From NCBI GenBank assembly GCA_047602405.1, contig JASGHJ010000001.1, positions 1,024,001 through 1,088,000 of the forward strand: a stretch of DNA of 64,000 nucleotides. Reading direction: 5' to 3'. Below, piece by piece: positions 8,590 to 51,701 of the stretch. The notes beneath the pieces are model-generated. The model made no database searches, was not told where the DNA came from, and was given only the letters and a program-made list of their open reading frames with translations. This DNA is from Anaeromyxobacteraceae bacterium (GTDB lineage Bacteria; Myxococcota; Myxococcia; Myxococcales; Anaeromyxobacteraceae). A program made the position numbers and the translations under genes. Position 1 is the first letter of the stretch. Each line of letters begins with the position of its first letter.

Positions 8590-9654
8590 ATGTCCCTCCC
8601 CCGCGTCGCGATCAGCCTCGGCGATCCCTCCGGCATCGGCGCGGAGGTGACGGCCGCGGCGCTCGCGCGCGTGCGCGGCGAGTGCACGCCGGTGGTCTAC
8701 GGCGATCTGGGCCTCTTCCGGCGCTGGTTCGCGGAGCTCACGGTGCCGGTGCTCGCGCGCGGCGCGGCACCCGGGCGCTCGGGCGGGCTCGTGCCGGTGA
8801 CCGAGCTCGCCGCGAAGGACGCCCGGCCCGGGAAGCCGACGCGCGCAGGGGCCGGGGCGCAGGTCGCCTACCTCGAGCGCGCGTTCGACGCGGTGACGCG
8901 TGGCGAGGCCGACGCGCTCGTGACCGCACCGGTGTCGAAGGCGCAGGTCGCGCGGGTCCTGCCCGGATTCGTCGGGCACACCGAGTGGCTGGAGGCGCGG
9001 GCTCCCTCGGCTCCGCGTCCCTCGTCTCCGGGCTCGCTGCGCGAGCCCTACGCTCGGGACGAACGGAGGCCCCGATCGGTGATGATGCTCGCCGGCGAGC
9101 GCCTGCGGATCGCGCTCGTCACGAACCACGTCGCGCTCGCGCGGCTGCCCCGGCTGCTCACCCCGGCGCGGATCGCAGGGACGATCGGCATCACCTTCCG
9201 CGCGCTGCGCGACGACTTCGGGATCCGGAGGCCGCGGCTCGCGCTCGCCGCGTTCAACCCGCACGCGGGCGAGGAGGGCACCTTCGGCGACGAGGAGGCC
9301 CGCGTGCTCGCGCCTGCGCTCGCGCTCGCGAGGAAGGCGGGCACGCCGGCGGCGGGGCCGTTCCCGGCCGACTCGGTCTTCTTCCGCGCCGCGCTCGGCG
9401 AGTTCGATGCGGTGGTCGCGCTCTACCACGACCAGGGGCTCATCCCGGTGAAGCTCCTCGACGCGGTCGGCGGCGACCCCGCGGTGAACGTGACGCTCGG
9501 GCTGCCCTTCGTGCGCACGAGCCCGGACCACGGCGTCGCCTACGGCCTCGCCGGCAAGGGCGAGGCCTCGGCCGACTCGATGGTCGCGGCGATCCGGCTC
9601 GCGATCCGGATGGCCGAGGTCAGGGCGGCGCGAGCGCGCGCGGCCAGACGCTGA
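8590..9654 (+). CDS. pdxA: 4-hydroxythreonine-4-phosphate dehydrogenase, carrying an in-frame repeat insertion
   Basis: GDPSGIGAE, GHTE, NPHAGE, YHDQGLIPVK, RTSPDHG motifs. Confidence 0.93.
   Translation: MSLPRVAISLGDPSGIGAEVTAAALARVRGECTPVVYGDLGLFRRWFAELTVPVLARGAAPGRSGGLVPVTELAAKDARPGKPTRAGAGAQVAYLERAFDAVTRGEADALVTAPVSKAQVARVLPGFVGHTEWLEARAPSAPRPSSPGSLREPYARDERRPRSVMMLAGERLRIALVTNHVALARLPRLLTPARIAGTIGITFRALRDDFGIRRPRLALAAFNPHAGEEGTFGDEEARVLAPALALARKAGTPAAGPFPADSVFFRAALGEFDAVVALYHDQGLIPVKLLDAVGGDPAVNVTLGLPFVRTSPDHGVAYGLAGKGEASADSMVAAIRLAIRMAEVRAARARAARR
9011..9068 (+). repeat. Palindromic REP-like repeat family A, copy inside pdxA
   Basis: cgtccctcgtctccg-[ggctcgc hairpin gcgagcc]-ctacgctcgggacgaacgg. 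Confidence 0.85.
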
Positions 9655-48460: not shown

Positions 48461-48775
48461 GTGTTCGAGGTGCGCTTCTACTCGACCGAAGCGGCCCGGT
48501 CGCAGCCGACCGACTTCCTCGGTTCGTTGCCTGCCCGTGATCGGGCGCAGGTCGTGGCGGACATCGCAGCGCTCCGGGATCACGGACTGCAGGCGCCGAT
48601 CTCCATGAAGCCGATCAAGGGGCGCCAGAACCGGGGCATGTTCGAGATTCGAACGGGAGGATTCCGCACGCTCTTCTGCCAGCGCAGCGGGGTGGTCTGG
48701 ATCCTCCACATCTGTCGCAAGCAGGATCAGGACGCGGGCATCGAGGCGGCCAGCGCAAGGATGAAGAGGCTCTGA
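48461..48775 (+). CDS. Type II TA toxin, RelE/HigB (Gp49-like)
   Basis: 104 aa, MKPIKG, GMFEIR..GFR, WILHICRK; toxin-first order. Confidence 0.8.
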   Translation: MFEVRFYSTEAARSQPTDFLGSLPARDRAQVVADIAALRDHGLQAPISMKPIKGRQNRGMFEIRTGGFRTLFCQRSGVVWILHICRKQDQDAGIEAASARMKRL

Positions 48776-48776
48776 G

Positions 48777-49184
48777 ATGAGGAAGACGACAAGGCCGGCG
48801 AAGCGAACGCCGAAGGCGAAGCGCCCGGGCGGGGTGGGGCTGGACGCGTACCTCGGTCAGCAGCTCGAGGATCCCGGCTTCCGTCACGCGTACGAGCAGC
48901 GGCGGCTCGTTCACGAGGTGGCCATCGTGGTCCGCAGCATGCGTGAGCAGGCCGGGCTCACCCAGGCGCAGCTCGCGAAGCTGGTGGGCGTCAGCCAGCC
49001 GATGATCGCCCGCATGGAGCGCGGCCTCGATCAGCGGACGCCGCGCTGGGAGACGTTGCGGAAGATCGGCCGGGCGCTCGGAAAGCAGCTGAAGCTCTCG
49101 TTCGTCGATGCGGACGGAGACGAGGCGCTCGTGGAGGTGGACGGGATGCCGGTGCGCCGTGCCGAGGCTTCGCAGCGAACCTAG
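48777..49184 (+). CDS. XRE-family HTH antitoxin (HigA-like)
   Basis: REQAGLTQAQLAKLVGVSQPMIARMERG. Confidence 0.85.
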   Translation: MRKTTRPAKRTPKAKRPGGVGLDAYLGQQLEDPGFRHAYEQRRLVHEVAIVVRSMREQAGLTQAQLAKLVGVSQPMIARMERGLDQRTPRWETLRKIGRALGKQLKLSFVDADGDEALVEVDGMPVRRAEASQRT

Positions 49185-49434: not shown

Positions 49435-49471
49435 CGTCCCTCGTCTTCGGGCCGCTGCGCGGCCCTACGCT
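49435..49471 (+). repeat. Repeat family A copy, left part (interrupted by IS110; right part 51026-51039)
   Basis: cgtccctcgtcttcgggccgctgcgcggccctacgCT | IS | CTcgggacgaacgg. Confidence 0.88.
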
Positions 49472-49488
49472 GCTTCGAAATGCCGGGG

Positions 49489-50743
49489 TTAGGAGGTGAC
49501 CGCCTCGGGTGTCTGTGAGGTGACGGTCACGCTATAGCCGAGGCGCTCAAGGCGGCGAACGAGGTTCTTGGCGACGCGCTTTTCGTCGACCCGGTCGAGG
49601 TAGGTGTCCCCGAGGTCCTCGTACGGCACGTGTTTCGTGAGGATTCTCATAGGCAGCGTTGAGGATCTTGTGGGCGATGGCGAAGGTGGCTCGCTTGTGT
49701 CCTCGGCGGGCCTTGAGGCGGAAGTACTTGTCTCGCAGGTAGGTCTTCTTGGTGCGGATGGCTGCGCCGGCAGCCTCGACCAGGGTCGACCGGAGGTGAA
49801 CGTTCCCCTTCCGCGAACGCCCGGAGCGCCGCTTCCCGGCCGATTCGTCGTTCCCGGGGCAGACGCCAGCCCAACTCGCCAGGTGGCGCGGGCCGCCGAA
49901 GACGGACATGTCGGGGCCGATCTCAGCGAGAAGTGACGCGCTGGTCTGGACCTTCACGCCCGGGATCGTCGAAAGCAGCTTGACCTGCTCGCGATAGGGC
50001 TCGAGTCGGCGCTCGATCTCCCTCTCTAGCGTGTCGACGTCGCGGTCAGCAGCGTCGAGCCGGTCGAGCTGTAGCCGCAACATGTACCGGTGGTGATCGC
50101 GGAGCCGGCCGTCGAGGGCGGCCTCGAGCTCGGGGATCTTCTTACGTAGGAGCCCTTCGGCGAGCTTCGCGAGGTTGCGCGGGTCGGATTCGCCATCGGC
50201 CATCGCTCGCAGCATCGCCATGCCAGACTTGCCAAAGACATCCGAGGCAACGCTTGCGAGCTTCACGTTCGCGGTCTCGAGGACCTTCTGTAGTCGATTG
50301 CGCTCGGACGTCCGGGCCTGGACGACCGAGCGTCGGTACCGAACGAGGTCCCGTAGGTCGCGAAGGTAGAGCGGCGGCACGTAGCTCTTGCGGATCAGCC
50401 CCATCCTCACGAGTCGGGCGATCCACTCCGAGTCCTTCACGTCCGTCTTGCGGCCTGGGACGTTCTTCATGTGCTGCGCGTTGCCAACGACGAGCTCGAG
50501 CTCGCCCGCCGACTCCAGCACCGCGTAAACGGGCTTCCAGTAGACGCCCGTGCTCTCCATGGCCACGTGCGTGACGTGCTCCTCGCGCAGCCACTCCACG
50601 AGCGCCAGCAAGTCGCGCGTGAACGTCGAGAACTCCCTCACGCACTTGCGCAGCCTGGAGCCCTCTCCCAGCAGCACGCAGGCCGTCACTTGCTCCTTGT
50701 GAACGTCGAGTCCACAGACCCGATCGACAACGATTCCTTCCAT
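49489..50743 (-). CDS. IS110 DEDD recombinase/transposase (one extra base at ~49644)
   Basis: GLDVHK, MESTG, RKTDVKD (D-E-D-D), C-terminal CPGNDESAG; GGAGG RBS; tail ILTKHVPYEDLG...LERLGYSV in a shifted frame. Confidence 0.93.
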
Positions 50744-50779
50744 GACCACCTCCGGGGAAGGAGGCGGTCGCTGCGCCGC

Positions 50780-50995
50780 GGGGTAGCTTCTAGGACACTG
50801 CTTCACGCCCTTCCCAGGCATGCATCTGCCCAGGTACGGCACACCGTGGTACCCATTCGCAGCGCGGGCCGGTCTCGGGGACGGGGTTCCTGGCAGGACC
50901 GCCGAACGTAGCAACGGCCTTCTGAGCGACCACCTCCGAGGTCGATCGCTACACCGGGACCGCCCGCGCGCTCAACCAACGGCAGGCATTTCATG
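50780..50995 (-). ncRNA. Candidate IS110 bridge RNA (ends approximate)
   Basis: Non-coding end upstream of the recombinase with nested stems whose internal loops match target and donor sites (see findings). Confidence 0.65.
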
Positions 50996-51074
50996 CCCCC
51001 CGGTGGACGTGTCCGTCCATGAGGTCTCGGGACGAACGGGAGTTGACCTTCCCCGTTCGCCCCGACCGCAGCCC

Positions 51075-51596
51075 TCACGCCATCGCGTGGCCGTGCCCGT
51101 GACCACCGTGCCCGCCGTGCATCCCGCGGCGATGGCCGCACCGGCCGCGGCGCCCGGGGCCCTCGGCGACCATCGCGGCGAGCTCGGTGCGCTGCGCGGG
51201 GTCGAGCGACGCGTGCACGCGGGCGATCGAGCCGGCGAGCCGGGTGCGGAGCGCGGACAGCTTCGCGAGCGGGCCCTCGAGCGCGGCGGAGACGGCGGCC
51301 TCGTCGAGCGCGGGCTCGGCGAGGAGCTTCGCGAGGGAAGCCCGCACGCCGGCGGCCTCGCCGCGCAGCTCCTGGGCGTCGAAGAAGAGCGCGTCGAGCT
51401 CGGCCTTCAGGATGCGCTCCTGCTCGGGCTTCGCGCCGAGGCGGCGGAAGAGCCAGACCATGCGTGCGCGGGGGCCGTGCACGCCGCCCCGGCGGGCGAA
51501 GCGGTGGAAGGCGGCGCGGAAGACGAGGCGGCGCAGCGCGCCGAGGACGAAGAGGGCGGCGATCGCGCCGAGGAAACCGGACCAGAACGGGGACAT
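51075..51596 (-). CDS. Spy/CpxP/heavy-metal-sensor-like helical protein with His-rich tail
   Basis: LGAKPEQ and LDPAQR (LTxxQ-like) motifs; GGAGG RBS. Confidence 0.7.
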   Translation of the reverse strand: MSPFWSGFLGAIAALFVLGALRRLVFRAAFHRFARRGGVHGPRARMVWLFRRLGAKPEQERILKAELDALFFDAQELRGEAAGVRASLAKLLAEPALDEAAVSAALEGPLAKLSALRTRLAGSIARVHASLDPAQRTELAAMVAEGPGRRGRCGHRRGMHGGHGGHGHGHAMA

Positions 51597-51701
51597 CGTT
51601 GCTGCCTCCTTGGCAGTCGTTGGACGGTGCCAAGGTAGGGGCCGCCCTTTGCTCGAGGGTTTCGTGAAGGTGAAGAACCGTGAAGGGTAGAATCCCGAGC
51701 G

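Follow-up and report, generated by a model that had tools for sequence, protein, structure and literature searches.

A very likely functional bridge RNA of mirrored polarity in the left non-coding end of an IS110 element from an Anaeromyxobacteraceae bacterium

The window considered here is a 64,000-nucleotide stretch of an Anaeromyxobacteraceae genome (GCA_047602405.1, contig JASGHJ010000001.1, positions 1,024,001 to 1,088,000), and coordinates refer to its first letter as position 1. An IS110 element of 1554 bp occupies 49472..51025 on the minus strand. It is bounded by the core dinucleotide CT of the plus strand at 49470..49471 (right end) and 51026..51027 (left end; AG on the coding strand), and it interrupts a host repeat, the left part of which, with a variable stem-loop, lies at 49436..49469 (+) and the right part at 51028..51042 (+). 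This repeat spans about 50 nt, its internal stem-loop varies freely between conserved arms, and it recurs at 9048, 19754, 28447 and 32428 of the window and genome-wide. The host genome holds four copies of the element (1554, 1554, 1554 and 1563 bp; 98.8-100% identical), each flanked by CT dinucleotides inside the repeat. Their differences, eight single positions and one 9-nt duplication, all fall inside the gene; the non-coding end is identical, and both junctions are common, in all four. The empty site, CTACG-CT-CGGG, occurs 176 times, against about 10.5 occurrences expected from its two halves. Because four filled and 176 empty sites can be compared, the core is fixed without recourse to RNA, and insertion is seen to occur at a short core with no further duplication. 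In 36 same-genus genomes searched there is no match at E 1e-60 or better, and a 49-57% homologue is present in 3 of 100 relatives searched; this scarcity suggests that the element was acquired recently.

Several neighbours deserve mention. A gene with the Pfam domain Metal_resist (51078-51599), which shares the strand of the recombinase, stops 50 nt short of the left end, and a Gp49/RelE-like gene followed by an HTH gene (48461-49184), probably a toxin-antitoxin pair, lies 250 nt from the element. Elsewhere in the genome (G000:C2, near 481957, 982000, 1994102 and 2509764), four copies of a second IS110-family element, 26% identical, combine a short left end with a longer right one, a layout like that of IS1111; their left flanks share a motif ending in ACCG.

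The recombinase gene as assembled (49547..50743, minus strand) encodes 398 aa from an ATG at 50743. Its product carries PF01548 and PF02371, scores 294 bits against NF033542 (cut-off 140), and aligns D13, E63, D101, D104 and S301 with the catalytic residues of IS621, which gives it the DEDD RuvC-like and serine Tnp domains of the IS110 family. Upstream, the frame stays open as far as a TTG at 50914, and the region is also overlapped by long GC-rich shadow frames, but homologues begin at the ATG, and the first-pass annotation was right to see no convincing ORF there. At 49643-49645 a surplus base throws the conserved C-terminal tail out of frame; this tail, which a homologue model predicts to be a helix, goes on in another frame to about 49489 and is lost in all four copies. 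Three copies have A as the surplus base and one has T, and homologous frames imply GATC at this point. In a comparison with 20 stretches of the same-genus genome G007, covering 103 aligned frames and 110,922 bases, there were 16 clusters with a net change of frame; five are the same GATC-to-GAATC change, and five more lie beside CTCTTC/GAAGAG. These recurrent surpluses disfavour an inherited frameshift. By this comparison, the frameshift is quite likely an assembly error, and the recombinase is probably intact at about 412 aa. The surplus bases would be errors at methylated motifs, and given their recurrence against orthologues, frameshifts across the host assembly are to be distrusted.

For comparative tests, 167 homologous loci were gathered, mostly at 40-68% identity, the element's own copies aside. 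Their records are titled Actinomycetota, Myxococcota, Thermoanaerobaculia, Bacillota and others; the family is not specific to myxobacteria. An N-terminal match was present in 158 of the 167 loci; 148 had 230 nt or more of upstream sequence, and grouping these at 90% identity gave 89 clusters. Four loci were then left out, L011, L005 and L044 because their upstream regions could not be aligned and L077 because it lacks a core at the anchor. This gave 144 loci in 85 clusters, in which the element under study is represented by L088. Right junctions were set independently of the RNA, by the pattern TTTC or TTCC followed after 5 nt by AG or AA (72 clusters). For left junctions the guide itself served for fitting, inside an interval set by a GAAA motif; they were tested against the guides of other elements and checked on five multi-copy groups, where the left boundary falls at the same AG. 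Overall, covariation tests used 57-72 homologue clusters against shuffled pairings, together with sister pairs. Most elements supply a single insertion each, and therefore off-target sites dilute the signal. Two peculiarities of the set were observed. A subclade (L113, L090-L099, L118, L126) has the core AA instead of AG, with both 3' guides altered to suit. Among L090, L097, L098, L109, L062 and L042 there are tandem right ends, homologues joined end to end and homologues abutting the right end of another element, arrangements consistent with circle junctions or with donor-like (half-match) insertion.

The left non-coding end is predicted to encode a mature RNA of about 178 nt (50760..50937, minus strand) that folds into a three-way junction. 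The consensus of 31 closer homologues, to which six pairs from the element's own fold were added, joins a closing helix, a target arm and a donor arm, with one internal loop in each arm, the architecture of a structured bridge RNA. The closing helix is formed by a 5' strand (50925..50937, minus strand) pairing with 50772-50760, and the first 10 nt of this strand repeat the ribosome-binding region at 50753-50744. The target-binding loop (50867..50919, minus strand) has an outer stem (50919-50915 with 50871-50867) and an inner stem (50904-50899 with 50886-50882), and the donor-binding loop arm occupies 50773..50865 (minus strand). The two internal loops that had been drawn by eye, target loop first, thus hold in the consensus. 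The separate 5' hairpin drawn at 50925-50950 does not: its pairing probability is 0.04 in both folds that contain it, and its bases join the long-range helix with 50772-50760, which reaches a probability of 0.99 in the fold of 50938-50760. Folding the 282-nt region 50744-51025 alone, as had been proposed, improves on shuffled sequences only weakly (z -1.86, 8/200). In the 31-sequence alignment, 88.8% of cells are paired against 79.8% after shuffling, and 23 of 38 pairs change on both sides, including 11 of 12 in the closing helix. Structure covariation is 0.352 against at most 0.124 with slid partners, a comparison favourably biased because the structure was derived from the same sequences. 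The three Rfam matches all have E above 1 and fall well short of the gathering scores. In the host genome, a profile from which this element was left out detects its four copies and nothing else, and neither this profile nor end queries detect stand-alone RNA copies, miniature elements or stand-alone ends.

The strongest evidence for guide function comes from each loop's 3' side. GAAGCAG (50804-50798), located where the first-pass annotation had read it, belongs to the right donor guide with core (50805-50798), which is followed by two handshake bases (50797-50796; feature 50796..50805, minus strand). This 3' guide of the donor loop reads the right end, matching its last five bases and the core. 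Compared with right ends defined without the RNA, it matches 4.43 of 5 positions against 1.87 after shuffling (72 clusters, 30 distinct guides, 0/2000). In 34 sister pairs, 34 of 45 differing positions are concordant and one is discordant; the signal is present in both subclades, and this is the best-covarying segment of all. The right target guide with core (50881-50874, containing CCCCGAG at 50880-50874) and its handshake bases (50873-50872; feature 50872..50881, minus strand) also covary strongly. This segment matches four to five flank bases, the core and, through the handshake, the first two left-end bases, which is the place occupied by the handshake bases of IS621 in the available text of PMC11208158. 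Its best match with handshake is 7.47/9 against 5.07 (maximum 5.39 in 300 shuffles) over 70 clusters, of which 13 scored below 7 and were excluded from later left-end tests. In 28 sister pairs, with junctions fitted to the guide, 39 of 61 changes are concordant in the guide and 13 of 16 in its handshake bases. The handshake bases after each 3' guide had been missed in the first reading. Those of the donor loop give a mixed result, with 0.72 against 0.51 overall (1/2000), 304/2000 in the larger subclade, and 1 versus 1 of 42 in sister pairs.

A target deduced solely from the guides finds 35 sites in the host genome at 13/15 or better, 28 of them within the repeat, and 8 of 60 shuffled guides yield just as many. 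The CGGGG form of the repeat, which fits the right target guide better, is the site of three of the four copies and of 62 of the 176 empty sites; the copy at 49472-51025 sits in the CGGGA form, four copies being too few to test a bias, and here the guide mismatches two of six non-core positions. The proposal that the target guides spell the host repeat is supported by covariation.

The 5' guides behave differently from each other. The left target guide (50905..50913, minus strand; CUACGUU at 50911-50905, again as first read) pairs with the flank past the right end, on its coding strand, and covaries modestly, at 2.61/7 against 1.75 (69 clusters, 0/2000), in only one, the expected one, of seven registers. 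The signal is seen within both subclades and is weak in sister pairs (17 versus 7 of 159 positions). This element matches at five to six of seven positions plus a wobble, and the family mean is 2.6/7, against 8-9 nt in IS621. The right flanks of multi-copy homologues differ widely. The left donor guide position (50841..50849, minus strand) shows no covariation save at most at two bases next to the core: its match is 2.19 of 7 against 2.02 (154/2000 shuffles), the subclades give 311/2000 and 1150/2000, and sister pairs give one concordant and two discordant among 82 differing positions. Allowing wobble pairs gives 5/2000, a value driven by the two core-adjacent bases. GGUGU does lie at 50845-50841, yet the donor role given to it lacks covariation, and its last U forms a U-G pair in 31 of 31 consensus sequences. 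The warning that such short guides could match by chance was apt for this segment; the other three matches exceed chance across homologues, and the covariation check that had been suggested bears them out, modestly so for the left target guide. Nothing like the 8-9 nt left donor guide of IS621, paired with the donor, was found here.

The arrangement of guides is mirrored relative to IS621. The RNA lies upstream of the gene, yet the guide order is that of IS1111 elements and the CT strand is antisense to the recombinase; in the IS621 type, 5' guides pair with the bottom strand in gene orientation and the CT core lies on the coding strand. The IS621 polarity on the coding strand was tried and rejected, its sister-pair controls being flat (5 versus 2, 1 versus 1, 5 versus 5, 1 versus 0). 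The left-end box (50985..51025, minus strand) comprises 6-7 nt, a hairpin at about 51019-51004 and an inner inverted-repeat arm at 50992-50985, 33 nt from the core; the outer arm of this sub-terminal repeat (49477..49484, minus strand) lies 5 nt from the core at the right end. Family-wide, the inverted repeat is 6 bp long (8 bp here), and its two variable positions covary (0.88 and 0.96 against 0.44 and 0.55, 51 clusters). On the right it is separated from the core by 5 nt, on the left by 30-40 nt. A hairpin lies in between in most of the cases inspected, although hairpin energy has z below -1.5 in only 18 of 59 (median -0.95). In homologue left flanks, 21 of 59 clusters carry a TTC that stops 4-6 nt outside the core, compared with 0-2 for other distances. 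This motif mirrors the TTTC of the donor, and part of the enrichment may stem from nested insertions. The target-side flank shows no family-wide folding excess (-3.93 versus -3.86 kcal/mol).

The same region has features of a translational leader. An alternative 10-bp hairpin (50744..50769, minus strand), exclusive with the closing helix, would cover the ribosome-binding site, and in long transcripts this site is predicted to be covered, with a probability of 0.99-1.0, by the strand that closes the mature RNA. Unpaired values below 0.3 were obtained for the site in 14 of 19 and in 26 of 35 homologues, counts that carry no shuffled control. An upstream segment (50960..50968, minus strand, limits approximate) can pair with the 3' strand of the target-loop stem in an alternative fold; 79% of cells pair in this helix, with covariation of 0.165 against 0.112. 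A general opening of the right target guide on trimming finds no support across homologues (8 more open and 3 less of 19; 6 more and 10 less of 35). A scan of the linear locus found no sigma-70-like promoter, and read-through from the Metal_resist gene could transcribe the RNA. As modelled by folding, it is plausible that the RNA is processed from a leader.

Taken together, the comparisons indicate that the left non-coding end very probably encodes a bridge RNA of about 178 nt that would guide the IS110 recombinase into the host repeat, in mirror orientation to IS621 and mainly through its two 3' guides. Sequence comparison shows that the element moves between AG/CT cores, that the target loop's 3' guide agrees with the flank, the core and the first two left-end bases, that the donor loop's 3' guide agrees with the right end and core, and that the left target guide agrees in part with the other flank. 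By analogy with IS621, two recombinase dimers would bind the loops, the CT strand, here the template strand of the gene, would be cut and exchanged, the handshake bases would favour exchange, and a circle joined at the core would be the intermediate. More tentatively, in the absence of a programmable left donor guide, recognition of the left end probably falls to the handshake bases and to protein contacts with the hairpin and the displaced inverted repeat. Equally tentatively, a longer leader that keeps the ribosome-binding site covered is the probable precursor from which the RNA is cut.

Other explanations of the left donor position and of the region as a whole have to be weighed against this one. 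The RNA might be a standard four-guide bridge RNA, only mirrored, whose left donor guide works in a missed register or by discontinuous pairing of the kind known in the IS621 donor loop, as the available text of PMC11208160 describes. This element and L089 do show matches of 7/9 and 8/9 to a site immediately beyond the left-end hairpin, and in the close subclade positions 6-7 of the left donor guide follow the left end (0.95 versus 0.67, 22/2000). The search for such a guide in nine fixed registers, anywhere up to the inverted repeat (best-match tests, 90/500 and 435/500), and in scans anchored on the core or the inverted repeat found none and gave no diagonal signal, and identical guide segments accompany different left ends in L088/L089 and in L095/L097, which makes a hidden fourth guide unlikely. 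It is considerably less likely still that the region is mainly a translational-control leader of the recombinase mRNA, with a shorter, seekRNA-like target-loop RNA as the working guide and a donor loop of little importance. Folding with a covered ribosome-binding site agrees with such a role, the ISPpu9 leader inhibits translation (PMC12288879, available text), and target-loop-only RNAs are, in the accessible reports, dominant for CazIS110-1 and sufficient for ISEc21. A purely regulatory leader, however, would not explain why the best covariation is that of the right donor guide, and the leader and guide roles are compatible. That the matches are chance or relics and the protein alone picks the site is hardly credible: the guides are only 5-7 nt long in DNA of 74% GC, and the TTC motif enriched in flanks lies outside the guide-paired zone, but the permutation and sister-pair tests contradict chance, with guide and site changing together.

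Judged from comparative sequence data, the preferred reading therefore remains a bridge RNA that is real, very likely functional and of a known class, with a layout that differs from that of IS621 in polarity, scaffold and donor recognition; the first-pass observation and interpretation hold in part. A broader proposal is speculative and rather doubtful in its full extent. The widespread branch of IS110 proteins of about 412 aa might be a natural 'one-strand' bridge system in which only the guides for the exchanged strand (right target, right donor and handshake) are programmable. Protein reading of the hairpin and displaced inverted repeat would replace the left donor guide, a protein-read TTC/GAA would flank donor and target like a PAM, the template strand would be moved by copy-out and top-strand paste-in, and a folding switch would couple guide maturation to recombinase translation. 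Selection mostly on one-strand guides fits the copy-out and half-match models as far as these are set out in the available texts (10.1101/2025.10.25.684509, 10.64898/2026.08.31.748434) and makes them testable in a distant branch. The short effective guides predict a specificity below that of IS621 and, consequently, modest applied value as a tool.

Among studied elements, ISPpu9 of Pseudomonas putida KT2440, for which circles joined at AG have been shown, is the closest by anatomy, the protein relationship being judged from list order and motifs compared by eye. In the available text of PMC12288879, both ends of ISPpu9 carry AG in gene orientation, its left box measures 43 bp and includes a palindrome, its right box measures 16 bp, and it has a REP target with a palindrome beyond the right end and a structured leader; the element described here shares these traits, with AG ends, a left box of about 43 bp containing a palindrome and a short right box. 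In contrast, ISPpu9 encodes 442 aa and has the Asr9/Ssr9 small RNAs and a MITE. That text gives ends and no guides; the present analysis provides a guide map for the AG-core branch of IS110. Of the named sequences found, ISArsp3 is the closest, with 45% identity across 99% of the query. It has RNA motifs upstream, AG cores, a TTTTC lying 5 nt from the core on the right and the matches of both 3' guides in common with the element, and differs in its guides and target. The cluster of ISAzo28, ISGka2 and ISCla1 (ISfinder names) was considered alongside it, the likeness of ISAzo28 and ISGka2 being by eye only. A literature search found nothing on an AG core of IS110 bridge recombinases and, in the available texts, no description of mirrored polarity with an absent left donor guide, although the Evo-PIN preprint, which in its available text presents 86 bridge RNA models over 32,190 loci, may cover this branch, and its models or published supplements may show the layout. 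In ISPpu10, a stem-loop 5' of the guide-matched target is a second determinant (bioRxiv 10.64898/2026.03.19.712850, available text); the variable stem-loop of the host repeat lies on the same side here, without a family-wide folding excess.

With IS621 and ISCro4, as far as the available texts of PMC11208160 and PMC11208158 extend, the element shares DEDD and serine domains, an upstream RNA of about 175 nt with the target loop followed by the donor loop, a CT core, a 5-nt right donor arm beside an inverted-repeat arm, handshake bases and a REP target. The initial assignment to the IS621 type was correct in the order of the loops and failed in polarity, in the 5' hairpin, replaced here by a closing helix, and in branch, which is the AG-core branch of ISPpu9 and ISArsp3. 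In IS621 (PMC11208160, available text), the 5' guides are the long ones (8-9 nt), they pair with the bottom strand, as also described for ISEc21, and the CT strand is coding; here CT is antisense, the 3' guides dominate, and the left donor guide is without covariation. The protein is about 412 aa against about 326 for IS621, and a homologue model at about 21% identity matches it in fold and catalytic residues. IS1111 elements such as ISEc11, ISKpn4 and ISPa11 have the reversed guide order, usually with a downstream RNA, repeats of 7-17 bp and proteins of 330-350 aa (PMC11187229, available text). The element here shares their order, with the complement of the top strand before the match to the bottom strand. 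However, its long non-coding region is the 282-nt left end, with fewer than 20 nt beyond the intact-frame stop at the right end, and its repeats of 6 bp family-wide (8 bp here) lie 5 nt from one core and 30-40 nt from the other. Upstream RNA position and IS1111-like guide order are thus independent, contrary to a simple two-family rule, and the locus represents a variant of a known and largely described system rather than a new one.
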